The translations under genes were made by a program, and so were the position numbers. This document shows positions 8,875 to 60,080 of a DNA stretch of 64,000 nt, in pieces; positions within the stretch are counted from its first letter, which is position 1, and each line of letters starts with the position of its first letter. The notes beneath the pieces are model-generated. The model did not search any database, was not told the DNA's origin, and saw only the letters and a program-made list of their open reading frames with translations. This stretch comes from Eledone cirrhosa (Eukaryota): positions 328,972,001 to 329,036,000 of the forward strand of contig OZ024743.1 in NCBI GenBank assembly GCA_964016885.1, in the 5' to 3' direction.

Positions 8875-11800
8875 GTATGAGATGACAGAATGGTATTTAA
8901 CTAATGTAATGGTACGCGATGGGGCCCACCCACAGCCCTGGCGGACAGAATGGAGAAGGCGTTTCTCCGGAGGACGGCAAGGGAGACGCGCTGGAAAAGC
9001 CACCCCACTCGCGAGGCTCACACCTACGGCTGGCCAGCTCAGCGTCTATGGTGGTGAGTAAGGAGGTAGCCCTGGGGCCGAGGACACCAGAAATTTCCAC
9101 TGCCAGGGGGACGACCGCAAACCTGTCGGAGAGCGACCGGTATTTGAGGAGTTTGGCCCCCTCAGCCCGACGTGCAGCAGAACCTGGGTCAGTCGCAGAC
9201 TGCACCAGGTTGCGGCTGCAGAAAGTGTCGGTGCAAGTGGCATCCCAGACGAGGGGTTTGCCACTTCGGAACGGGAAGATGGTCATTTGCCGTCCCCTCG
9301 ATCCAGCCCCACCGGCTCGAGCTGGGAAGGCAAGCCTGCAGCGTCCAAGCCATGCTTAATGACCTCGTTGAGGGCAGTATGGTGTGGAATGCGGCCGGCA
9401 CTGTGGCGACAGGAAAGCGGGTAGAGGCCGAAAGAGTCCACGGTGAAACCGCAGCGACATTGGTGTGGCTGGCAGATCCGGAGGCCGAGCCTCAGGGAAA
9501 CGCTGATTCGCAGGCTATGGTTGTCTAACTGCGTGCCAGTGGGGAAGGAAGGCAGAGCATGGAGCGTGGCACCACTGTGGGGTTTGGAGGCCGCACGAAA
9601 ACAAGCAAGGCGGTGCTGGTCGAGCTGGCGCGTGAGCCTGTCTGAGGCCAGGCTGCACTGGATGGCATCCCAAGTGCGTCGGGGGGGGGGGGGCTTGACG
9701 TCAACAGGAGGAGAAGGAGGAGGGACGTCTACTGGGCCAAGTCCCAGCCGGACCTACGTGTCACAGGCGGCCTCACGTTCGCTGAACACAGATGGTTCTG
9801 TTGTGTTTTGAAGAATTCTGCTGACGAGTACGCGGCACGAGGTTACCGACGAAAGATGCGCCGGCAAAGCTAGTGAGATCGGGGACCGGAGGCCAAGGCC
9901 GCTATACCTGGCCGGTAAAGTGGCCTGTGGCCACCCTATGTCGTCAAACTTGACGTTGCATATCCCCTCGGCTGCTGCTCGGATACAAGTATCGAGGTCA
10001 GCGAGGAGAGATGTCTGGGTGTAGCATGGAGCGCTGCGGAGTGTATAGAGGAGCTTCGACATGGCGAAGTAGTTCCTCAGCAGAAAGAGAGCTGGGTGGC
10101 CGTCAAACAAGCCCAGTCGGCTCGTGAGAGTCTGGAGATGTTGAAGTCTGGACCTGATGGTGGAGCGGATGGCCGGCGGGTGGAATCACCGATTGAAGGT
10201 CTTGGCAGACCGTCCGTACGGGCCCGCCCAACGTAGCATCATCCAGATACCAAACGTTGAGAGGGGTCGTGATACTCCGGGCGATGTGGTCAACACCAAG
10301 GGCGAACAGGAGGGGTCCCAAAGAGTCTCCCTGTTGCACCTCAGAAGCCGAGGGTATGACCGTATCAGCAGCTAGGAGCATGCTCGGGGCTCCATATGAC
10401 AGGTAGGCCAGCGGGTAGGCAGAGGGGGCTCGGCTGAGGCAGGCCTCGAGCAGATGATCCCGGCGTAAAGAGTTAAAAGCATTACTCATGTCAAGCTTAA
10501 CAATGAGGTGCCTGGAGTCCCTGGATGCCGGTACCGATGGGCAGCTGCTGAAGAACTGCCTGATTGCATGAGAGGCTCCCTCACAGCCACCGGACACGCC
10601 GACACCCATTTGCACCGGACTAAACTCCTCACCCAGTTCGTGTGTGACGGACTTGCAGATCACCTTGGCAGCCAGCCTCCGGAAGACATTGCCCACAGTA
10701 ATGGGGCGTATGCCACCCTCTTTCTTCCTGAGAGCGGTGAGGCTGGCCGAAAAAAAGAGGCCTCGGACGTAAGCGTCGAGGGCACCGTGAATGAGCCTAT
10801 TGGTGAGCGCCACAATTGCACTCAGAAGGCGGCGCCAGGCCTCAGCGGAGAGGGGGGATTTCAACTCCTTGAGGTGGCCTGGTCGGAGACCATCAACACC
10901 TCCGCAGCTGCTAGCTGGAAGGACCTGATGGCGGACATGATATCTGCATCAGTAGCCACAAGGAGTAGGTGGGGGTCGGGTGAGGGCATGGGTCTGAGAT
11001 CAGTGGGTGGCTCTGGGTGTTTGAGCCGCAGAGCAGCCAGGATCTCCTCGGTGGGTTGGATGACAGTGTCCTCTGAGGCAACAACTCTGACTGCGGCCGA
11101 GACATCACCCATGATAAGCTTTATCTGGTCACGCAAACGCTTGGCGCTGGTCACGGGGGTGGAGGATAGGGGGTACCTGAGGGTGGAGTGTGTGGCGTCC
11201 CTGGGCACGCTTGGAATGGGCGCTCGCCCAAATGACGAGACATTGGCCTTGACGAAGGCTGCTGTTGACCGGCCGCCCCGGTCAGCGCCAGAACTGGGGA
11301 GGCCGAGGGCGAGAGGGGCGAAATAGAACAGCCACTCCCAGTCACTGGCTCGATTGGAGTCCAGGGCGCTCTCAATCGAGGAAGCGAGGGCATCGGCTAC
11401 CGGCACCCGTGCCGCTCTCGGGATCCTGAGTGGGATCTTCCGGAGCCGCCTGAGCCGAGCGATGTTGACCAGCGAGGCTCGGGCGTCAGGCAAGCTCGCT
11501 GTCCCATCTGGTGGTGTGCCAGACGGCCGTGGCTGGGAAGACGTGGGGGAAGAGGCAGCTCCTGCACCTCCACGCTGCGAGGGCACTGGAAGCTCGACGA
11601 GTCAAGCCAACGCAGGTGAGGTGGTGGAAGCAGCCGCACCCCAAACAGTTCCGGCCCCTCTTCCGTTTGTTAGTAGTGCCGCAAGTGCTCCAGGTGTCGA
11701 TTTGGAGGGGTGGAGGATGGGGCGTGGGGCCGGGGACTGGGGCACCGAGCGGCATCAGGGGTGGGTGGCTGGTGTGTGTGGTTGGAAGGGAAAGTGGTGG

Positions 11801-15263: not shown

Positions 15264-15423
<160 letters not shown>

Positions 15424-15570
15424 TATTTTCCGTTGTGTTGTAATATAAATATTACACACAGTAGATTATCAGCTCACGTAGAGTTTGCTCGACGGTTTCA
15501 GTTGTAGTTCCAAAAGTAATCCGGAGAAAAATAGAAAGATTTGAATGGATACACTTTAGTTGAAAGGAAT

Positions 15571-15690
15571 TTATTGACACGTGTTTCTATAACAGTTACA
15601 TAACCTAAAACAGCTGCTATCTACAAACTTTTAGTTATGCAGACATTCAATATTTCAATGTTATTATTTACTGTCATTTCATCAGAATAA
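15571..15690 (-). ncRNA. HHR of PLE1 pLTR with 73-nt insert in stem II
   Basis: ttatt CTGATGA a atgacagt [73 nt] actgttat a GAAA cacgtG TC ^ aataa; second copy at 37395-37511. Confidence 0.75.
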
Positions 15691-16276
15691 TATTACTGTG
15701 AGGACCTATTTAGTTTTTATAGAGAATATTAGGAGGGAGGGGTGAAGTTGTTAGAAGAATAGTTGAAGGAGTGGTTTTTCGATAGCAGTGAGAATTCTTG
15801 GTGGCAGTGAGTAATTAGATTCCCATCTGTTGTTTTGACATTTTTTATAGAATATATTATTGGTTATTTTTCTAAATCTATAGAAGGATTAGAGATAGTA
15901 AAGATATGCGTGGTTGGTTTTGTGTTTGCACTTAATTAACATTCAGACTTAAATTTTTCTTTCAAGTGTAAGTATCCTTTCACCCACGCATTCACACACA
16001 AATATATTTGCACACCTCTACAAAATACATATAGTCACAATTCACATATTCATACTTACATATATATACACATGCATACACATATATATACACACATGTA
16101 TTCATGTACATACATACGCGCTCATGTGTATACATTTTCATACTCAACTTATCTTTATATACACACGTATAGACACACACATATATACATACATACTCTA
16201 GTCCATGTGTACACACATACACATACATACACATCCATATACACATATATACATACATATATATATATATATATAT

Positions 16277-16327
<51 letters not shown>

Positions 16328-16602
16328 TATATAAGCACTTTAATACATGAATACACTTACATCTAACTATACACATCAAACATATATATATATTTACTTA
16401 TTTATATACATTTTCACATATATATACATACTTATGGACGTTTTTAGACACATTCATTATCGCATATTTGCACCTATTCTCATCAGCATATATTTCCATT
16501 ATTAGTGTGGTAATTTAAGGTTATTAATATATGTTGAGAAGAGATTGTTTTTATATTTTTCTAACTAGATTAAGGTTTATATAGTTGGGGGATGTCCCTC
16601 TT

Positions 16603-18858
16603 TTATGTAATATTCGGCTTGTAGTGGGAAAAAAGGGTTTTAGTTCTGTGACGGCAGAATAATGTTCGTTCAATTCTGTTATTCAGCAGTTTCTTCTTGT
16701 GTGTGATTATGTAATAAATCTCAAGATTACACAATTTGCAGAAATTTTGGCTCCTGGAAAAGCTTTTGGTTTTAGCTAATTTCTCCCATTTTAGGGTAAA
16801 CTTTTGATCGCTATCCCTGAGCGTCCAAGCTTTTTCTGCTAAAGTTGTTACATTTCTTTGGCTCTGGTGTTTTATTGAGTAAGAATGCCTATACAATCGA
16901 GATTTAAACGATGTTGCCGTTGATCCCACGTAATACCACTCGTTGCCTCCAGATTTAATGGTACACTTATAAATAATATTTTTTTCCAGGCAGTTATTGC
17001 CGAGGGGGCAGTTGTCAGGATAGGTGCAGTTACAGTTGTGTACGTTGGGTTTTCTCTGGAGTAGTATTGCGGACGAACTTAGGTGTGGTTTATTTATGTT
17101 CTGTAGTGTATTGTCTACTGTTTTTTTTGTGTTCTTTGTACTTAAGTTCTTAGTGTTTTCGTTTAACCTTCTAGTATTGATCTTTTTTATGTGTTGTTCA
17201 AGGTTTAACGCTGTAGAGTATGACAGTCTTATAGTGGTAGGGTTTAGGATTTTGTGGTATTTGTGTGATGTGGGAAAATGTCTTTTAATTATTTTAAAGA
17301 AGAGTACTGGTAAATTTGTACTAATGGAACTATTGTATTCGGGGTTATACCATAAGTACTCTTTGCATCGCTTTCTATTAGTTTTGTTTGTTGGTTTACT
17401 GGTGTGCATACTATGGTAGTAAGTGTGGTTTGGTGTTGTGTTATTATATCTACCTATGTGGGATTTATTTTGGGTGTTTTGATTGTTCCCATCTATGTAC
17501 TCTATTTTGTTGAGGTAGCCTGCTTTACTAAGGGCGTTATCGTAGTACTCGGCGTGTTCCTTAAATACTTGTATGTTAGAAGATAGACCCGAGATTCTAA
17601 GGGAAATATTTTTAGGGATAGATTTAATTATAGAGATGGGGTGGTTAGACCCAACATTTACGTATTTGAGATTTTCATTCAATTTATGAAACGGTTTAAT
17701 CAAACCAGAGTTTAAATTGAGTGTGACATCCAGGAAGTTAACTACTTTAAGGTTGTATTCATATGTTATAGTTAGTCCTATTTCGAATAGTAGTTTTCTT
17801 ATATCTTTGCGTAGTTTTTCTAGTTTTTGGTTATTAAGGTTTTTAGCTAGGAGGAGAACATCGTCGCGGTATATTCCGCCGTGGAGATTGCTGAATTTTT
17901 CCTGGAGTCTAAAAGCGATAAATAACCCCACAATATCAGTTATTTCCGCCGAATCGTTAGAGCCCATTGTTATGTCAAAGTTAGAGGGTCTATCTTTACG
18001 TACCCAATAACTGTTCTCAAATTTAACTATAGTTTTCCTAGCTTCTAATATAATCTTAATTTCATCGTTTGTAAGGTCAGAGTTATCCTTAGCAAACTTA
18101 ATGGCTCTATTCAAAGTTTCAGGTGATATCGATGAGTAATATTCATCGATATCAAACTGGATAAACTTAGATTTATTCTTATTGCTAATGCTATTAAACC
18201 ATCTTATTGCTTCTTGGGTCTTCCCCCAGAGTTTAATGTTAACCTTAGCCTTAATTTGGGGGATGATTCTATCTAAGATATATTTGTTTATTTTACCTAT
18301 ATCTGATTTAGAGGGGCAGATTAATCTAATTTTAGGGTCATTATCAAAGTTTACCTTGTGGTCCTTAAGATTGAAGGTGGGTACCGCCGGTAAGAGTGGT
18401 CCTGTCCTATCTTCGATTCCGAGATTTTTCACTATTTCGCATGCCTCATCATTGATGTGCTTAAGGGTTACTTCACTCGTTTTTCTATATTTTTTATGTA
18501 ATTCTTTTCGAATGAAGTTGTTGTATGTAGTGCAATCCATAGTGTACAGGTTTGATGTTTTGTCCGCTTTTACTACAATTCCTTTGGTGTTTTTAAGGTC
18601 GTCCAGTAGTTTTTTTATATCTTTCTGTAATTTGCTGTTGGTGTTGCGTCCTTTGAATTTAATTTTAAGGATTAAGTTCATAAGGTCCTGCTCAAATACA
18701 TCTAATAGTGGGTTGGTGGGTGGGTTTTTACAAGTCCTAAAACCGAATTTGTTGTTTACACCACTTTCTAATGTTGAGTTCATACGGCTTCTATCATAGT
18801 GGAGCGTTTTCCACCTGACACGTCGAATGAATTCATTAGTTTTTTGAATCATACTCAA
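16603..18858 (-). CDS. PLE reverse transcriptase + GIY-YIG endonuclease (751 aa, uninterrupted, probably slightly 5'-truncated)
   Basis: [38 protein letters not shown], CNCx5CPx4C linker, IIYKC..YYVGST..R..H, CKLCNLE, CRH. Confidence 0.92.
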
Positions 18859-21434: not shown

Positions 21435-21653
21435 CGTTATTCCGGGTTGAATCGGAGGTAACCACAGTAAGTAAGGTACTCAATACATTGCAGAGTATAA
21501 AAGTTTTAATATAGATGAGATTCTACAGGACTAGAACTGTTTCATTCTTTAGAAATCATCAGGAATCTGGGTATCAAAAAATTTATTTTTTGCTACCCAG
21601 ATTCCTGATGATTTCTAAAGAATGAAACAGTTCTAGTCCTGTAGAATGTCATC

Positions 21654-29207: not shown

Positions 29208-30325
29208 TTATATATATAAGTAGAAGGGATATTTAATTTGTTGGAAATTCAACAAATATAAATGTTTATAACTGATTCAGAGCACTCGAAAGTTTTCTGG
29301 AGTGAATATTCAATGATATTAAATTTATGACTACCCAAAGAAAATTCAATTGATAAGGTATGTTTCCTTGGCTATGTCAACATTTATAAAACGCACTTTG
29401 TATTTTATCTGATAAAAGCGGACCAAAGTTTTTGGTACCCTTGAAATATATATAATAGAATAAATATGATTTTATAAATATAGCTTCCATTTATTTAATA
29501 TCATTATATATATATGCGTGTATATTTAATACATGCATACATTTATTTTTTTTAAAATCTAATTGAGTTCTTAACACGCGGGTTTAAATTTGTTGACGGA
29601 ATTTATCTCACCCACGTGTATATTATTTTACTTTCTTGTGTTTCGCGATTACCTCCCCTTTCCGCTTCGTGACGCTGTGTAGTTCCTCTTTCTGAGACTG
29701 CTGGAATTTCAAATTTGGTGCTCATTATGTTGCATGAAGAGATGGTTAGCTGACACAAAAAATAACATCGGTAGGGAATTTTTTCTTGTATCAATGTTTT
29801 ACGGGCGTCCACTGATGATTTATAAGTTCCCTCCTGCATGTATTCTTACGGAAATATATGTTGGCTTTTACATAACCCGGATACATTATCCCAACTTGTA
29901 AAAAACTTATAATGAAACAACTGTTTGGAAAGAGAGATATATATTTTAATTTTAATTGTATCTCATATAAAATAATACAGCTGGCTTTCCACAAAATACA
30001 TATAGTTAGCACCCCAAACATATAATTGGGATTATACTAAGGTATATCCTAATGTTTGTTGAGTGAGATGGTTGCCAGTCAGAGTATAGCTTAAGGCTTT
30101 CTCTGTTTATGTATTTAATATATATAGATATATATATATATATAGGAACAAGTATAACCCCGACGGCAGAGCTCAAGCCGTTTCGACAGAATTAGCCGTC
30201 GAAACTGCTTAAGCTCTGCCGTCGGGGTCATACTTGTTCCTATTACCCACTCTACCACCCTAAGTAGGACCATAAGGACCATAACGCACTTTGGTGCGTT
30301 ATGGTCCTTACCCCATTTCCTTCGT

Positions 30326-30353
<28 letters not shown>

Positions 30354-30357
<4 letters not shown>

Positions 30358-32651
30358 TAGACATAGAATATTCGAAAATATTCTGTATGTTTATAATAAA
30401 CATTTTGAAGACCTAATCGCTATAGAATAGAATACGTCACGTATTACAATTAGATTCTCGATAAAAGCAAGGGAAGTAATCTACGCGTTTCATTCTCGTT
30501 AGAAATCATCAGGACTACATATCCAGTGCTTTTATCGAGAATGACACAGCTAGAGACTTATAGAATACTTAGCTGTGAACAGGAACTGGTTTGAAAGAGC
30601 GGTTGCCGGTCCGGCAGAAATTAGAAATTGGAATAAATGCTCTGAAATAGCGATATATATGTGAATATAGACATAGAATATTCGAAAATATTCTGTATGT
30701 TTATAATAAACATTTTGAAGACCTAATCGCTATAGAATAGAATACGTCACGTATTACAATTAGATTCTCGATAAAAGCAAGGGAAGTAATCTACGCGTTT
30801 CATTCTCGTTAGAAATCATCAGGACTACATATCCAGTGCTTTTATCGAGAATGACACAGCTAGAGACTTATAGAATACTTAGCTGTGTACAGGAACTGGT
30901 TTGAAAGAGCGGTTGCCGGTCCGGCAGAAATTAGAAATTGGAATAAATGCTCTGAAATAGCGATATATATGTGAATATAGACATAGAATATTCGAAAATA
31001 TTCTGTATGTTTATAATAAACATTTTGAAGACCTAATCGCTATAGAATAGAATACGTCACGTATTACAATTAGATTCTCGATAAAAGCAAGGGAAGTAAT
31101 CTCCGCGTTTCATTCTCGTTAGAAATCATCAGGACTACATATCCAGTGCTTTTATCGAGAATGACACAGCTAGAGACTTATAGAATACTTAGCTGTGTAC
31201 AGGAACTGGTTTGAAAGAGCGGTTGCCGGTCCGGCAGAAATTAGAAATTGGAATAAATGCTCTGAAATAGCGATATATATGTGAATATAGACATAGAATA
31301 TTCGAAAATATTCTGTATGTTTATAATAAACATTTTGAAGACCTAATCGCTATAGAATAGAATACGTCACGTATTACAATTAGATTCTCGATAAAAGCAA
31401 GGGAAGTAATCTACGCGTTTCATTCTCGTTAGAAATCATCAGGACTACATATCCAGTGCTTTTATCGAGAATGACACAGCTAGAGACTTATAGAATACTT
31501 AGCTGTGTACAGGAACTGGTTTGAAAGAGCGGTTGCCGGTCCGGCAGAAATTAGAAATTGGAATAAATGCTCTGAAATAGCGATATATATGTGAATATAG
31601 ACATAGAATATTCGAAAATATTCTGTATGTTTATAATAAACATTTTGAAGACCTAATCGCTATAGAATAGAATACGTCACGTATTACAATTAGATTCTCG
31701 ATAAAAGCAAGGGAAGTAATCTACGCGTTTCATTCTCGTTAGAAATCATCAGGACTACATATCCAGTGCTTTTATCGAGAATGACACAGCTAGAGACTTA
31801 TAGAATACTTAGCTGTGTACAGGAACTGGTTTGAAAGAGCGGTTGCCGGTCCGGCAGAAATTAGAAATTGGAATAAATGCTCTGAAATAGCGATATATAT
31901 GTGAATATAGACATAGAATATTCGAAAATATTCTGTATGTTTATAATAAACATTTTGAAGACCTAATCGCTATAGAATAGAATACGTCACGTATTACAAT
32001 TAGATTCTCGATAAAAGCAAGGGAAGTAATCTACGCGTTTCATTCTCGTTAGAAATCATCAGGACTACATATCCAGTGCTTTTATCGAGAATGACACAGC
32101 TAGAGACTTATAGAATACTTAGCTGTGTACAGGAACTGGTTTGAAAGAGCGGTTGCCGGTCCGGCAGAAATTAGAAATTGGAATAAATGCTCTGAAATAG
32201 CGATATATATGTGAATATAGACATAGAATATTCGAAAATATTCTGTATGTTTATAATAAACATTTTGAAGACCTAATCGCTATAGAATAGAATACGTCAC
32301 GTATTACAATTAGATTCTCGATAAAAGCAAGGGAAGTAATCTCCGCGTTTCATTCTCGTTAGAAATCATCAGGACTACATATCCAGTGCTTTTATCGAGA
32401 ATGACACAGCTAGAGACTTATAGAATACTTAGCTGTGTACAGGAACTGGTTTGAAAGAGCGGTTGCCGGTCCGGCAGAAATTAGAAATTGGAATAAATGC
32501 TCTGAAATAGCGATATATATGTGAATATAGACATAGAATATTCGAAAATATTCTGTATGTTTAAAATAAACATTTTGAAGACCTAATCGCTATAGAATAG
32601 AATACGTCACGTATTACAATTAGATTCTCGATAAAAGCAAGGGAAGTAATC
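30354..32651 (-). repeat. 310-bp HHR-bearing tandem array (retrozyme-like), left arm, 7.4 units
   Basis: Units start at 30354 + n*310; HHR on minus at 30476-30518 + n*310 (7 copies, two with GUA->GGA at 31103 and 32343). Confidence 0.95.
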
Positions 32652-34585
32652 ATACAGAATATTTTCGAATATTCTATGTCTATATTCACATATATATCGC
32701 TATTTCAGAGCATTTATTCCAATTTCTAATTTCTGCCGGACCGGCAACCGCTCTTTCAAACCAGTTCCTGTACACAGCTAAGTATTCTATAAGTCTCTAG
32801 CTGTGTCATTCTCGATAAAAGCACTGGATATGTAGTCCTGATGATTTCTAACGAGAATGAAACGCGTAGATTACTTCCCTTGCTTTTATCGAGAATCTAA
32901 TTGTAATACGTGACGTATTCTATTCTATAGCGATTAGGTCTTCAAAATGTTTATTATAAACATACAGAATATTTTCGAATATTCTATGTCTATATTCACA
33001 TATATATCGCTATTTCAGAGCATTTATTCCAATTTCTAATTTCTGCCGGACCGGCAACCGCTCTTTCAAACCAGTTCCTGTACACAGCTAAGTATTCTAT
33101 AAGTCTCTAGCTGTGTCATTCTCGATAAAAGCACTGGATATGTAGTCCTGATGATTTCTAACGAGAATGAAACGCGTAGATTACTTCCCTTGCTTTTATC
33201 GAGAATCTAATTGTAATACGTGACGTATTCTATTCTATAGCGATTAGGTCTTCAAAATGTTTATTATAAACATACAGAATATTTTCGAATATTCTATGTC
33301 TATATTCACATATATATCGCTATTTCAGAGCATTTATTCCAATTTCTAATTTCTGCCGGACCGGCAACCGCTCTTTCAAACCAGTTCCTGTACACAGCTA
33401 AGTATTCTATAAGTCTCTAGCTGTGTCATTCTCGATAAAAGCACTGGATATGTAGTCCTGATGATTTCTAACGAGAATGAAACGCGTAGATTACTTCCCT
33501 TGCTTTTATCGAGAATCTAATTGTAATACGTGACGTATTCTATTCTATAGCGATTAGGTCTTCAAAATGTTTATTATAAACATACAGAATATTTTCGAAT
33601 ATTCTATGTCTATATTCACATATATATCGCTATTTCAGAGCATTTATTCCAATTTCTAATTTCTGCCGGACCGGCAACCGCTCTTTCAAACCAGTTCCTG
33701 TTCACAGCTAAGTATTCTATAAGTCTCTAGCTGTGTCATTCTCGATAAAAGCACTGGATATGTAGTCCTGATGATTTCTAACGAGAATGAAACGCGTAGA
33801 TTACTTCCCTTGCTTTTATCGAGAATCTAATTGTAATACGTGACGTATTCTATTCTATAGCGATTAGGTCTTCAAAATGTTTATTATAAACATACAGAAT
33901 ATTTTCGAATATTCTATGTCTATATTCACATATATATCGCTATTTCAGAGCATTTATTCCAATTTCTAATTTCTGCCGGACCGGCAACCGCTCTTTCAAA
34001 CCAGTTCCTGTACACAGCTAAGTATTCTATAAGTCTCTAGCTGTGTCATTCTCGATAAAAGCACTGGATATGTAGTCCTGATGATTTCTAACGAGAATGA
34101 AACGCGTAGATTACTTCCCTTGCTTTTATCGAGAATCTAATTGTAATACGTGACGTATTCTATTCTATAGCGATTAGGTCTTCAAAATGTTTATTATAAA
34201 CATACAGAATATTTTCGAATATTCTATGTCTATATTCACATATATATCGCTATTTCAGAGCATTTATTCCAATTTCTAATTTCTGCCGGACCGGCAACCG
34301 CTCTTTCAAACCAGTTCCTGTACACAGCTAAGTATTCTATAAGTCTCTAGCTGTGTCATTCTCGATAAAAGCACTGGATATGTAGTCCTGATGATTTCTA
34401 ACGAGAATGAAACGCGTAGATTACTTCCCTTGCTTTTATCGAGAATCTAATTGTAATACGTGACGTATTCTATTCTATAGCGATTAGGTCTTCAAAATGT
34501 TTATTATAAACATACAGAATATTTTCGAATATTCTATGTCTATATTCACATATATATCGCTATTTCAGAGCATTTATTCCAATTT
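32651..34585 (+). repeat. 310-bp HHR-bearing tandem array, inverted right arm, 6.2 units
   Basis: Reverse complement of the left-arm unit; HHR at 32832-32874 + n*310 (6 copies). Confidence 0.95.
32832..32874 (+). ncRNA. Type I hammerhead ribozyme of the 310-bp unit (representative copy)
   Basis: gtagtc CTGATGA t ttct aacg agaa t GAAA cgc GTA ^ gattac; stem I continues past an internal loop as the 16-bp helix attctcgataaaagca/tgcttttatcgagaat. Confidence 0.9.
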
Positions 34586-34719
34586 ATATATATATATGTA
34601 TATTTATATATATATATAAAGAGAGAGAGAGAATTAGTATATTTACTAGTAAGTAAGTTAATTTTTAATTTTTAAAATTTTCTTATTTTACGTCTTTCAC
34701 ATATATATATATATATATA

Positions 34720-34835: not shown

Positions 34836-34905
<70 letters not shown>

Positions 34906-35540
34906 CAGGTACACATACATATATGTACGCATCAGTTTAGCGGACGCTTATTATAGCGCCCGCTTTGTTCGTTTGTAAACAAACTGAACAGCCTGAATTT
35001 ATGCCGCACGGTGTTAAGGCAACCACGTCACCTTTTTGTTCAACACTGACACAGGAACGATGTACTAGTTTCAAGCTTGTTAGCTATCATCAGCACCGTA
35101 TACCCATCTGCCAGATAGTTGAACGTTCGAAAGTATATCCTTTCCTTATACATACATACTTACATTTAAGTAAGTGCTGTACTAAGAGTGAGAAATGAAA
35201 TTTCGTTTTCATTTTATTACAACTCATCGTTTTCGGTGCGCCTGACCGATTTAACTCACTCGATATGCAAATTAGGCTGCCCAGCCGTTAATTTTAATAA
35301 GGAAAGTATATACTTTCGAACGTTCAACTATCTGGCAGATGGGTATACGGTGCTGATGATAGCTAACAAGCTTGAAACTAGTACATCGTTCCTGTGTCAG
35401 TGTTGAACAAAAAGGTGACGTGGTTGCCTTAACACCGTGCGGCATAAATTCAGGCTGTTCAGTTTGTTTACAAACGAACAAAGCGGGCGCTATAATAAGC
35501 GTCCGCTAAACTGATGCGTACATATATGTATGTGTACCTG

Positions 35541-35586
<46 letters not shown>

Positions 35587-38175: not shown

Positions 38176-38762
38176 GGAAAAAAATGAAACGAAATTTAAT
38201 TTCCCACTCTTAGTACGGCTGTTACTTAAATATAAGTATGTATACGTACATACATATATGTATACAGACGTAAAGTAGTATGTATATATATATATACATA
38301 CATGCACACATATATATATGTACGTATGGATTCACCGAACATTTATTATAATGCTCGGTGTGTTTGAAAAAAAACATCCCGTATTAAGCCGTAGTGTCTA
38401 GCAACCATCGTTGCTCATTTGTTCAACACTGACAAAGGAACGCTGTACTAGTTTCAAGCTTATTAGCTATCATCAGCAACGTATACCTTCCTGCCAGATT
38501 GATACTAATATACGTGCCAATGTATAAAATATAATAATAAGCTTGAAACTAGTACAGCGTTCCTTTGTCAGTGTTGAACAAACGAGCAACGATGGTTGCT
38601 AGACACTACGGCTTAATACGGGATGTTTTTTTACAAACACACCGAGCATTATAATACATGTTCGGTGAATCCATACTTACGTATATATGTGTGCATGTAT
38701 GTATATATATATACATACTACTGTACGTCTGTATACATATATGTATGTACGTGTACATACTT
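38172..38762. mobile_element. Family D head-to-head insertion (diverged copy)
   Basis: Minus HHR 38440-38482 with altered but still pairing stem I acgttg/cagcgt. Confidence 0.8.
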
Positions 38763-39659: not shown

Positions 39660-39725
<66 letters not shown>

Positions 39726-39731
<6 letters not shown>

Positions 39732-40343
39732 TATACAATTATCAAAGTTGTGTTCAAATCATTTAATAGCTGACAATCGTTTCTTCCAAACTCTCGTTTA
39801 GAGTCATCGGAGTATTATCAATGTTTGCACATATAATTGCCCCCCTATTCAACTGAACTTTCTCAAAACTGCTTTCTCAATGCCTCGTTAATATTTGGAC
39901 TATTCCCTTGTTTTAACTGTTGCATGTATTCCACTCAGTGCTTTTAATTTTGATTTGAATTTGAACTTGAATGTTTGTACAATTATTGTACAATTCTCGT
40001 AAAATATATGTCACATCCACTCCACCCTGTAAATACGAAACTGTTGCTCACAACATCAATTTAAATGTATCTATATTATTGTTCAGTTGAATAGGAGGGC
40101 AATTATATGTGTAAACATTGATAATGCTCCGATGACTCCAAACGTGTGTTTGGAAGAAACGATTGTCAGCTATTAAATGATTTGAACACAACTTTGATAA
40201 TTGTATAATTTATTTATTTAACTGCTCTGTAAAACAACTGATGTTCATACATTGAGCTATTTCTCTTACTGGTAATAAGGTAATTAAGAAATTACTGACC
40301 TTCCTGTTTATAGTTGTTTATACTATATACATAACTAAAAATA

Positions 40344-41894: not shown

Positions 41895-42275
41895 ATAATA
41901 TGGAAAACGAAGAATCAGTGATGCATCGGAACACAATTTATTAACGTATTACAATTGTTTGTCCGGTGAACAGCTCGTGGTGCGATCTGTTTGTGGCTCG
42001 AACCTGACTCTGGATTCGCAAGTTCCTCAGATACGTCTTGTGATGTCTCGAAATCACTAGACGTATCTGAGGAACTTGCGAATCCAGAGTCAGGTTCGAG
42101 CCACAAACAGATCGCACCACGAGCTGTTCGCCGGACAAACAATTGTAATACGTTAATAAATTGTGTTCCGATGCATCACTGATTCTTCGTTTTCCATATT
42201 ATCATACTTTGGTCCGAAGGAGCATAGAGTGCTCAACCGGCATACCGCCTATGGACGCATCCTAGCAACCATACT
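41895..42275. mobile_element. Family F palindromic insertion with two long-stem-II HHR motifs
   Basis: Plus 42061-42153 acgtat CTGAGGA [62 nt] cAAA caatt GTA ^ atacgt t AATAAA; mirror at 41944-42036. Confidence 0.75.
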
Positions 42276-47967: not shown

Positions 47968-48424
47968 AAAGTTTTATTTAAATTGTTGGGATACTACACG
48001 CAAATATTTTTTATAACTGATATAAAGCACTCGACAAGTATTTGGAGTAAATATACGATATTAACAAATGGAAACTATATTTATAAAACCATATCTATTT
48101 TATTATACATATTTCAAGGATACCATGTTAAATTATGGTATGCTTTCATCAGACAAAATACAATATATACCAGTTTTATAAATAAACATTGACGTACCCT
48201 TTCAAAATGCAACCGTTAGTTTTGGAAGACATCAAGGATATCCTTGATGTATCCAAAGCTAACGGTTGCATTTTGAAAGGGTACGTCAATGTTTATTTAT
48301 AAAACTGGTATATATTGTATTTTGTCTGATGAAAGCATACCATAATTTAACATGGTATCCTTGAAATATGTATAATAAAATAGATATGGTTTTATAAATA
48401 TAGTTTCCATTTGTTAATATCGTA

Positions 48425-48425
<1 letters not shown>
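47965..48425. mobile_element. Family E palindromic insertion with two HHRs
   Basis: Centre ggatatcc near 48240; plus CTGATGA aagc ataccat/atggtat cctt GAAA tat GTA t AATAAA; relatives at 23210-23488, 29221-29506, 38780-39128, 58691-59116. Confidence 0.8.
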
Positions 48426-48482
<57 letters not shown>

Positions 48483-49259: not shown

Positions 49260-49870
<611 letters not shown>

Positions 49871-49893: not shown

Positions 49894-52828
<2,935 letters not shown>

Positions 52829-52837
52829 ATATTTATA

Positions 52838-53724
52838 TCAGAAAAGTTCCAGGACTGATGTCACAAAAGATTTATTTCAAACCCAAACTTCACACTAAGA
52901 GTTTCCTCCTTCAAAGTAATCCCCCTGGAGTATGTAACTGTAATCTTAGCTCTCTGCAGCGATCAAACTTTTTTCTTCATAATTTTATATACATGACCTC
53001 TGTTTCAGGTCGTCAAGCAATGAGCACAGAGCAACGAACAGACTTGAAAACTCCGTCAGAAGCACTGGGATTGCTGCAGCAAGTATATGGAGATGAGACG
53101 ATGTCACGCTCACGTGTTTTTGAGTGGTGCAAGAGGTTTAAAGAAGGACGCGAGGACGTGGAAGATGACCCCAGGAGCGGAAGGCCCTCAACAACCAGGA
53201 CTGATGTCAACGTTGAGCGCGTCAGGCAGATGGTGCTTAGCGATCGTCGGCTGACTGTTCGACTGATGGCAAATGAGCTGGGCATGAATCGGGACAGCGT
53301 CTGGAAGATTCTAATTGAAGATTTGGACATGCAGAAAGTCTCCGCGAAGATGGTGCCAACACTGCTGAACGATGACCAGAAGGGTCGACGCATGCAAGTG
53401 TGCCAGGACATCCCCCAGCGTCTTGAAACCGAACCAGACTTGCTAGGGACAGTCATCACCGGTGATGAGTCATGGATCTTCGAGTACGACCCGGAGGGGA
53501 GCCGTTTTGAAGACGTGGACGACATCAAAAAGGCCGTGACGACGGAACTGCGGAGGATCCCGGAAGCATCCTTCCAGGAGTGCATGCAAACGTGGCAGAA
53601 AAGGATGGAAAAGTGCATTAGACTCCAGGGGGATTACTTTGAAGGAGAAAACTCTTAGTGAAAAGTTTGGGTTTGAAATAAATCTTTTGTGACATCAGTC
53701 CTGGAACTTTTCTGACACACCTCG
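52838..53724 (+). mobile_element. Internally deleted mariner element with ~95-bp inverted repeats
   Basis: 52838-52931 is the reverse complement of 53622-53715; right end cacacctcg|TA; ORF has VFEWCKRFKEGR..DDPRSGRP, KMVP, VITGDESWIFEYDPE fused to RFEDVDDIK..GDYFE. Confidence 0.9.
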
Positions 53725-53759: not shown

Positions 53760-55412
53760 AAAAGAATAGAAGTGTAACACACGAGTTATGATATATTGGT
53801 AAAAGGAAAAGAAAATGCTGACAAATTGTTCCCAGTGAAAAATAGTTTAATTAGGAATAAGTAAAAATTAGTAATAGTATTGGCTAGTATTCAGTTTCGG
53901 TTTTAAGTTTTACCGGTTGCGCATTTCTAATGCTTTACAAAATAATTTTAATCCTACGAACACACGATATCATAAAGAGCAAAAGACAATCTAAGTCAAT
54001 GAAAAACATCCTAACACATGCCAAAGTACTGCCAACCACAACAACGAAACCCACAGTAAAAAAATGCGATAGACCCAACTGTGGCATATGCATCAACCTA
54101 ATAGAGGGTTCGAAATTCTATTTCAAAGAAGGACAACGTTTTATAGTAAAACACAATTTCACATGCGCATCAGAAAATCTAATATATGTATTAACTTGCT
54201 CAGGTTGTCGAGAACAATACATAGGCCAGACCAAAAACAGCCTCCGCCAACGCATGACTGTCCATAGATCCCAAATTAAAATACGGGAATACAGGAAAAT
54301 ACCACTGAGTGAACACATTGATACCTGTGTCGCCCAAAATCATCCCAACTTCAGAATCTTTCCCCTCTACAAATTTAAAGATAATGCCACCCACACCCAG
54401 CGCATCATCAAGGAATCTCACTTTATTAACAAATACGGACCCCGTCTAAACACTTGTAGTGACTGAGATGGTCGCTTAGAAACTAGCAGTTGCCTCCTCT
54501 TAACAACTCTTCAGAGAGCGGAGGCAATATACATCCGGTCACAGACGCGGGTTTGCTCACTCTCTTTCTCATGGACCGCGAACATGAACAGACGTGAAAG
54601 GATTCGCTCCTCAACAAATATTGACCATGCTGGCTTCGTAAGGGACTATGTGAAAATGCCTTCCTTCGGATCAAGGACGCCACGATATCTCGACTAATAG
54701 GCATTTGCTTATGTCTTCGTTATTCCTGCACCGGAGAATATAATTACACTACTTCTATTAACCCACAAGGTATGTTTGAATTGACATTGTACATAATTTA
54801 TTAAATGTCGCATTTAATAAAGGATCGTTGATTTTTGACTGTTCACCCCCCTTCTGGAGTCATTTATTTCTACAAAGAGAAACGATGTATTGTCCATTCA
54901 TCGACAATCTTTCGTTTCCTTTACACTTCTCCCTAAGACGAACCCACAACATACACACGTCAACATACATACCTACATCAGCATACATCTCTATCTACAC
55001 ATAAACACAATGACATACGTAAACACACATGTTCTATGGTGCAACACAAATATACACAAATTTGCATGCCTTTTGATGTCTATAGATATAAACGTGCCGA
55101 CACACACACATACATATACGCACACATGCATTGCACACTGATGGGCACATACATATTTGTACACAAGTATTCCAATACGGCAAGGCCTAATGGATTCCCC
55201 TTGCAGTACGTACAATCTGGACACTCACACACACCTTGGTATTATGCCAATACTATATATCATTTCAGACCTTTTATTATTAAGGTTTTTGATGTTCTAT
55301 TGAGAGAATCGTTTTTACTGAAAATATCGAATAATGTACACCATTTTTACCAGTATCACAAAAATACTGGTCCACCCACCCACCCACCCACCCACCCCCA
55401 CACACACACATT

Positions 55413-58616: not shown

Positions 58617-58690
<74 letters not shown>

Positions 58691-58693
<3 letters not shown>

Positions 58694-59113
58694 ATATTAA
58701 CAAATGGAAACTATATTTATAAAACCATATTTATTTTATTATACATATTTCAAGGGCCACCAAGGCAAGTTATGGTTGGCTTTCATCAGATAAAATACAA
58801 TACAGATTAGTTTTATAAATAAATATTGACATACCCTGAAAAAAGACAACCTTAGCGGTTGGAGTTGTCTTTTTTCAGGGTATGTCAATATTTATTTATA
58901 AAACTAATCTGTATTGTATTTTATCTGATGAAAGCGCACCATAACTTGCCTTGGTGGCCCTTGAAATATGTATAATAAAATAAATATGGTTTTATAAATA
59001 TAGTTTCCATTTGTTAATATATTGAATATTTACTCCACAAAACTGTTGAGTGCTTTATATCAGTTATAAAAATGTTTAAGCTTGTTGAATCCCAACAAAT
59101 TAAATATAACCTC

Positions 59114-59198: not shown

Positions 59199-59267
59199 AA
59201 ATAAAAATATATTACGGGAACTTCTGAAACAGTATGAACAGAGGCATTTTTTTCTATTAATACCTCG

Positions 59268-60080
59268 ACCGCCATGGCCTTAATACACCCCCTCTTTCCC
59301 TCTCATCTGGCTCCCTCTACCGCCATGGCCTTAATACACCCCCTCTTTCTATCTCATCTAGCTCCCTCTACCGCCATGGCCTTAATACACCCCCTCTTTC
59401 TATCTCATCTAGCTCCCTCTACCGCCATGGCCTTAATACACCCCCTCTTTCCCTCTCATCTGGCTCCCTCTACCGCCATGGCCTTAATACACCCCCTCTT
59501 TCCCTCTCATCTGGCTCCCTCTACCGCCATGGCCTTAATACACCCCCTCTTTCCCTCTCATCTGGCTCCCTCTACCGCCATGGCCTTAATACACCCCCTC
59601 TTTCTATCTCATCTGGCTCCCTCTACCGCCATGGCCTTAATACACCCCCTCTTTCTATCTCATCTAGCTCCCTCTACCGCCATGTCCTTAATACACCCCC
59701 TCTTTCCCTCTCATCTGGCTCCCTCTACCGCCATGTCCTTAATACACCCCCTCTTTCCCTCTCATCTGGCTCCCTCTACCGCCATGGCCTTAATACACCC
59801 CCTCTTTCCCTCTCATCTGGCTCCCTCTACCGCCATGGCCTTAATACACCCCCTCTTTCTATCTCATCTAGCTCCCTCTACCGCCATGTCCTTAATACAC
59901 CCCCTCTTTCCCTCTCATCTGGCTCCCTCTACCGCCATGTCCTTAATACACCCCCTCTTTCCCTCTCATCTGGCTCCCTCTACCGCCATGGCCTTAATAC
60001 ACCCCCTCTTTCCCTCTCATCTGGCTCCCTCTACCGCCATGGCCTTAATACACCCCCTCTTTCCCTCTCACCTGGCTCCC
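59268..60080. repeat. 51-bp minisatellite, 16 copies
   Basis: Unit accgccatggccttaatacaccccctctttccctctcatctggctccctct. Confidence 0.95.

Follow-up and report, generated by a model that had tools for sequence, protein, structure and literature searches.

The 310-nt repeat array studied here belongs to a large family of hammerhead-bearing arrays with a common architecture: two tandem arms lie head to head within a (TA)n target, their inner ends are distributed uniformly over the unit, their outer ends are paired between two fixed sites, and the units of an array are clonal. The arrays are non-LTR retrozymes. We think it likely that they were inserted by a Penelope-like enzyme that copies one small RNA circle, and that the junction of the array in the window (the whole 64,000-nt stretch of Eledone cirrhosa DNA that was analysed) lies on the predicted ribozyme cut by chance.

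The array has a repeat period of 310 bp, with 7.4 and 6.3 copies in the two arms (the tandem-repeat criterion was 150-450 bp), and a GC content of ~0.34 (below 50%, as used for retrozymes). Unit positions were numbered from 0, the first base after the GAAACGCGUA^ cut. Each unit carries a type I hammerhead with core and helices, as judged by pattern and pairing, and its variants preserve pairing. In the copy listed in Table 1 the core CUGAUGA spans 32838-32844, together with GAAA and a long helix I. Helix II has a U-U pair at its base, and helix III is minimal, with one or two pairs and the palindrome ACGCGU. The predicted cut lies between 32868 and 32869; its placement after GUA follows the hammerhead consensus, which we presume to hold here. 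U16.1G occurs in 2 of the window's units. The unit hammerhead had no Rfam match at the gathering threshold. No ORF of ≥150 aa was found in 30354-34585, and the array passes directly into (TA)n without an LTR. By tandem unit, GC content, type I hammerhead and absence of ORF and LTR, the element bears the testable marks of a non-LTR retrozyme, and self-cleavage and a circular RNA are predicted. A pattern search with a 29-mer of the unit yielded 14,078 exact matches in the genome, and head-to-head pairs made up 11 of the first 16 family loci on contig 1.

In the window array the RNA-sense 5' ends of both arms meet at the junction and the 3' ends point to the flanks. The left arm extends from unit position 0 (32651) to position 127 (site A) and the right arm from position 92 to position 166 (site B), where it carries a tail of 35-40 nt; both 3' ends pass into (TA)n. 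The original prediction had described an inversion point at 32651 with one shared C, which was exact to the base. If one mismatch is allowed, the overlap amounts to 4/5 bases (TAATC vs TAAAC). The junction C is the first base 3' of the cut predicted for the left arm, and beyond the junction this arm passes through seven further hammerheads. A mirror artefact of the assembly is unlikely, since no mirroring extends into the flanks and the outer ends lie at two different family-typical sites. Other short head-to-head inserts in (TA)n are common in the window, several of them with hammerhead-like cores, and the studied array sits in (TA)n adjoining one such insert.

Table 1. Features of the window, in window coordinates
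Feature	Position	Strand	Remarks
Left (TA)n target tract	30326..30353	none	
Left arm, 7.4 units of the 310-nt hammerhead repeat	30354..32651	minus (ribozyme strand)	
Head-to-head junction	32651		single C common to both arms
Right arm, about 6.2-6.3 units of the 310-nt repeat	32651..34585	plus	
Right (TA)n target tract	34586..34618	none	
Reference unit, 310 nt	32869..33178	plus	~34% GC; positions 0 to 309
One type I hammerhead copy	32810..32894	plus	pattern and pairing
Short head-to-head inserts in (TA)n	30146-30325, 34871-35575, 38282-38718, 39719-40220, 41895-42202, 48039-48439, 49325-49870, 58682-59032		
Second hammerhead family	8616, 21562-21604, 45761, 63614, 4867		
Hydra-clade Penelope-like element, slightly 5'-truncated	15421-18852	minus	RWK, DKT and CxCX5C motifs
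Second Hydra-like fragment	49950-51330	plus	
GIY-YIG fragment	53888-54466	plus	PF01541
Frameshifted non-LTR reverse transcriptase	8897-11800	minus	PF00078
Fragment that we take to be mariner-like	52900-53658	plus	
51-bp minisatellite	59263-60080		16 copies

The outer 3' ends of the family fall into two classes, A at ~125-138 (mode 129) and B at ~164-171 (mode 164), whose modes are 35 nt apart; both classes of end pass into the (TA)n target. Among 110 mapped junctions both outer ends were in view in 68, with one end unclassifiable in 11. The classifiable arrays combined A with B in 56 of 57 cases and B with B in one (1/57), and none had two A ends (0/57). The window array likewise pairs A (127) with B (166). 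Penelope-like elements are characterised in PMC8557442 by an inverted 5'-truncated copy, a tail of 30-40 bp that is often one-sided, (TA)n targets and tandem copies, and the tail is the stretch between two internal reverse-transcription start sites (PMC11167929). The same marks were found here, namely an inverted 5'-truncated copy joined at its 5' end, a one-sided tail of 30-40 bp and a (TA)n target. With inverted 5'-truncated arms and a one-sided tail, the arrays match the published Penelope signature in layout, and by this analogy the family was likely inserted by a Penelope-like reverse transcriptase-endonuclease. The resemblance in layout, tail, target and tandem copies includes the endonuclease-bearing elements of the Hydra clade, as described by Craig et al. 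2021 (PMC8557442). In contrast to the elements described there, the retrozyme arrays have no ORF and contain up to ~20 tandem units per arm. The window array has no ORF for a reverse transcriptase with a GIY-YIG endonuclease, so it is not an autonomous Penelope-like element.

A comparison for the two ends is Poseidon, a Penelope element of Anolis, which in vitro uses two adjacent internal start sites, with both target strands cut and extended (PMC11167929). Poseidon (Frangieh et al. 2024, PMC11167929) resembles the retrozyme in the two starts that define a tail, in its AT-rich targets, in a predicted dimer and in the absence of reads starting or ending at the ribozyme site. In Poseidon, however, the start site was not seen to differ between strands, whereas retrozyme insertions each use one A and one B; moreover, the Poseidon ribozyme is dispensable in vitro, whereas the essential core bases of the retrozyme look selected.

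Haplotypes were compared in 74 arrays with approximately a full unit in each arm; mutant-site arrays were omitted save one that had already been sampled. The two arms had the same haplotype in 70 of the 74 arrays, compared to 10% for arms taken from different arrays. Eighteen variants private to one array filled all units of both arms (15/74 arrays), and in example arrays variants were fixed through 9 to 20 units. Unit-specific substitutions amounted to 0.05% per base, and arms of up to 17-22 units were nearly free of differences while exact A and B ends were kept. Given the common arm haplotype and the private variants present throughout, every array goes back to a single unit; a monomer circle is a direct explanation for this.

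Mutations of the hammerhead core were followed through the arrays at three essential sites, with one planned control, a test that cannot assess lone mutant units in very short insertions. Genome-wide, 18 units were mutant at G5, 24 at G8 and 14 at G12, and among these no array was fixed for a mutation at any of the three sites (0 each). Five ambiguous G5, G8 or G12 arrays proved to be mixed on inspection. At the control G218 (52 units genome-wide) 2 arrays were fixed for a mutation and 1 was mixed; at position 17 (65 units) there were 5 fixed arrays, of which 3 had U and 2 had G. From the private-variant rate we estimate that three neutral sites should yield ~4 fixed arrays (p ~0.02; with the planned control only, p ~0.06). 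Of the 38 fixed variant types in the 74-array sample, none fell on the 11 core positions, where 1.3 were expected, a difference not significant alone. Helix variants exchange only Watson-Crick and wobble pairs; two-sided covariation was absent from the hammerhead, and the shuffle control was uninformative. Selection on the core is suggestive of cutting in vivo, and is better evidence for it than the junction. According to the NUH rule a G at position 17 should cut poorly. Two arrays of different haplotypes (L209 and L214) have G at this position throughout both arms (20 and 9 units, respectively), and by this rule they argue against a need for cutting.

The uniformity of the arrays and the G17 cases would also suit a Penelope-type insertion from a long uncut linear donor transcript, where uniformity is inherited from donors homogenised at the DNA level. 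Such a transcript accounts for the common haplotype, the multi-unit arms and the uniform starts, and requires no cutting of the G17 arrays; multi-unit duplications exist, and in vitro the enzyme worked mainly on unprocessed RNA (PMC11167929). We nevertheless regard this explanation as unlikely, as it fails to predict either the private variants that fill every unit in 15 of 74 young arrays or the absent fixation of G5, G8 and G12 mutants.

The original prediction had interpreted the junction on the cut site as a coincidence beyond chance, and the break as the 5' end of a ribozyme-made RNA and hence as evidence of cleavage in vivo. Its odds of about 2 in 310 per junction were correct. However, the family comprises ~1,600 junctions and ~3,300 arm starts, or ~10 arm starts per unit position (estimated from the listed matches), and therefore ~10 arms are expected on the cut base by chance. 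Junctions were sampled by a two-anchor pattern that selects on the sum of both offsets (a gap window of 31 of 310) and is blind to the cut site. The pattern had 297 genome matches, the first 100 of which represented 55 junctions; together with 11 junctions from contig-1 loci, this allowed 132 arm starts to be mapped. None of the 132 was located at position 0 or within 1 nt of the cut (1.3 expected), and 2 were within 2 nt (2.1 expected). Compared to a uniform distribution, the starts gave a KS p=0.13 (p=0.37 in an earlier pass with 122 starts).

A genome-wide start pattern at the cut window (-2 to 0) had 20 matches, 18 of them true arm starts on inspection, and a control pattern of the same design (unit positions 186-188) had 19, of which 18-19 were true. 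Within these matches the exact cut base accounted for 3 starts and the exact control base for 7. When three mismatches were required just upstream of a start at the cut base, the genome yielded 3 cases, the window's arm included, and at least 4 arms in the genome begin at unit position 0. The counts are compatible with at most about a twofold excess at the cut, corresponding to at most about 1% of arm starts. Junctions were thus not enriched at the cleavage nucleotide; the starts were uniform, an outcome that the original prediction itself had named as speaking against it. With 0/132 starts near the cut and 20 matches against 19, neither of its interpretations is supported: chance is the most likely reason why the junction of the window array falls on the predicted cut, and the coincidence at 32651 is evidence of nothing. 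The wider picture of an RNA intermediate and two joined cDNAs, primed from opposite sides of the target, was retained on other grounds than the cut-site junction, namely the outer ends at two fixed (TA)n sites, the common arm haplotype and the short junction overlaps.

For the left arm of the window we consider it very unlikely that a reverse transcriptase ran off the ribozyme-made 5' end of a linear multimer. The arm start is exact to the base, it has company at position 0 elsewhere in the genome, and the counts leave room for the up to ~twofold excess mentioned above. The same arm, however, crosses the seven further hammerheads, its partner starts at 92, and neither the pattern counts nor the exact-base counts (3 vs 7) reveal an excess.

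In some long arrays variants recur every 4-10 units (L205, L206, L207, L208, L211: 5, 6, 10), and T308G is present in laps 3 and 7 of the window's left arm. Periodic variants may be due to local duplication, conversion or multimeric templates, and indicate that the arrays also undergo local duplication or conversion at a later stage, by which they could be homogenised. Multimeric circles were not adopted as their source; in the 6-unit case the variant order differs between the arms and other variants are unrepeated. Local tandem expansion is discussed, with its mechanism left open, by Li, Clavereau and Pollet 2026 (bioRxiv 10.64898/2026.07.22.740005). As the origin of whole arrays, single-unit insertions later expanded and homogenised by unequal crossover, inter-arm gene conversion or DNA circles are nonetheless highly improbable, even though periodic variants occur: arms of 17-22 units are nearly difference-free with exact A and B ends, and such processes would fix ribozyme-dead units at the neutral rate. 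Least credible of all is a circle-free mode in which the enzyme jumps end to end between cut linear monomers, which would require ribozyme activity and yield tandem units, but predicts starts at position 0 and error scars at 309/0, neither of which was found (0 events at 309 and 0 and 2 at 308, of 132), and would mix haplotypes within arrays by jumps between molecules.

An overlap of at least 2 bases was present at 28 of the 47 junctions lacking inserted bases, compared to 18% at random, and 19 of 66 junctions contained inserted bases. The same junction coordinates were noted at separate loci (L228/L229, L025/L143, L067/L072, L162/L131, L089/L100), mostly at sites of longer overlap. Arm lengths within arrays were correlated (Spearman 0.51), a correlation that differing sizes of the fetched stretches can create. 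In LINE-1 twin priming, two cDNAs start from opposite strands of the target and are linked through short overlaps, and the outer-primed cDNA is predicted to end where the second cDNA was primed. The retrozyme arrays are alike in the two cDNAs from opposite strands and their joining through short overlaps, but the first retrozyme cDNA does not end beside the second priming site. Starts at unit 120-150 were seen in only 3 of 56 B arms, where 5.6 are expected at random, and LINE-1-type twin priming was rejected.

In the reading that we favour, a Penelope-like enzyme copying one small RNA circle, the array would be transcribed and neighbouring hammerheads would cut the RNA, probably as dimers because helix III is minimal; the monomer would then be ligated to a circle. 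Judging from the ends, the enzyme would nick both (TA)n strands and prime a cDNA at each of the two sites, A (unit ~129-138) and B (~164-171). Each cDNA would circle the same RNA several times, across the ligated cut site. Both would halt at arbitrary positions, which are seen in the mapped junctions, and would be joined by a presumed chemistry that often uses 2-4 shared bases. Since a circle lacks a 5' end, no junction excess at the cut is expected, and none was found. Points against the circle are the two arrays (9 and 20 units) fixed for G17, the lack of two-sided hammerhead covariation, the lack of a sequence-similar autonomous partner among the window's elements, and the dispensability of ribozyme cutting for insertion in vitro (PMC11167929). 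More specifically, and with slightly more doubt than belief, we propose that each array could be the fossil of a single reaction, in which a Penelope dimer, starting from both ends of the cut (TA)n, extended an A and a B cDNA rolling on one ribozyme-made monomer circle. If this is true, the arrays would prove at the genomic level that the ribozyme is indispensable to retrozymes and that they spread through reverse transcription of the rolling-circle type. The single-circle reaction would then also account for the inverted, one-tailed and tandem structure of Penelope insertions, which has long lacked an explanation.

For metazoan non-LTR retrozymes, Penelope-like elements spreading via circles are a proposed model in PMC7229834, PMC7761336 and bioRxiv 10.64898/2026.07.22.740005. 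The present family shares with the metazoan retrozymes of Cervera and de la Pena 2020 (PMC7229834) and of the 2026 preprint a non-coding low-GC tandem unit with a type I hammerhead per copy. It also shares the weak palindromic helix III and the U-U pair at the helix II base of the axolotl motifs in these texts, and the helix III of one or two pairs with a palindrome of the amphibian motifs in PMC7229834. Cutting and circles are demonstrated there for other families, whereas for the present one they are predicted. Head-to-head arrays, paired A and B ends, a shared arm haplotype and core selection are not described in the accessible parts of PMC7229834 or the preprint, and a literature search, with supplements and subscription journals outside it, returned no report of head-to-head A+B retrozyme arrays. 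With ~14,000 units and ~1,600 young junctions, the family is a large natural data set on animal retrozyme mobilisation, and it also bears on how Penelope-like elements form tandem, inverted, one-tailed insertions. With the results on clonality and core selection the circle model becomes open to direct tests: it predicts a circular monomer, strict pairing of A with B in every insertion and dependence on the catalytic core.

Intact copies of the Hydra-clade family are 98-100% identical and show that Penelope machinery was, judging by this identity, recently active in the genome: all 107 candidates scored had this identity to the window copy, so that the family has at least 107 near-identical members, and many were head to head. 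The clade label rests on the RWK, DKT and CxCX5C motifs as compared with PMC8557442; the ORF was unrecognised by Pfam. The element has a C-terminal GIY-YIG-type domain and a hammerhead-like motif in its pseudo-LTR. Ten head-to-head pairs were fetched, and both ends were fully visible in seven, all of which were A+B (7/7). The tail, the distance between A and B ends, is 113 nt, compared to 35 nt in the retrozyme, and no sequence similarity links the unit to the window's Hydra-clade element. The family has the same layout, but with its 113-nt tail and no similarity it was not identified as the retrozyme's partner.

At least half of the unit's words were present in 20 sequencing runs under 18 organism labels, and in 6 contig runs (X1, X2, X3, X7, X10, X16) the unit was identical or differed by two bases. 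Its occurrence under other labels could be due to horizontal transfer, close relatives or mixed samples. A second hammerhead family in the window occurs as short inserts within (TA)n; its core and helix II are almost those of the unit, but its flanks are different.
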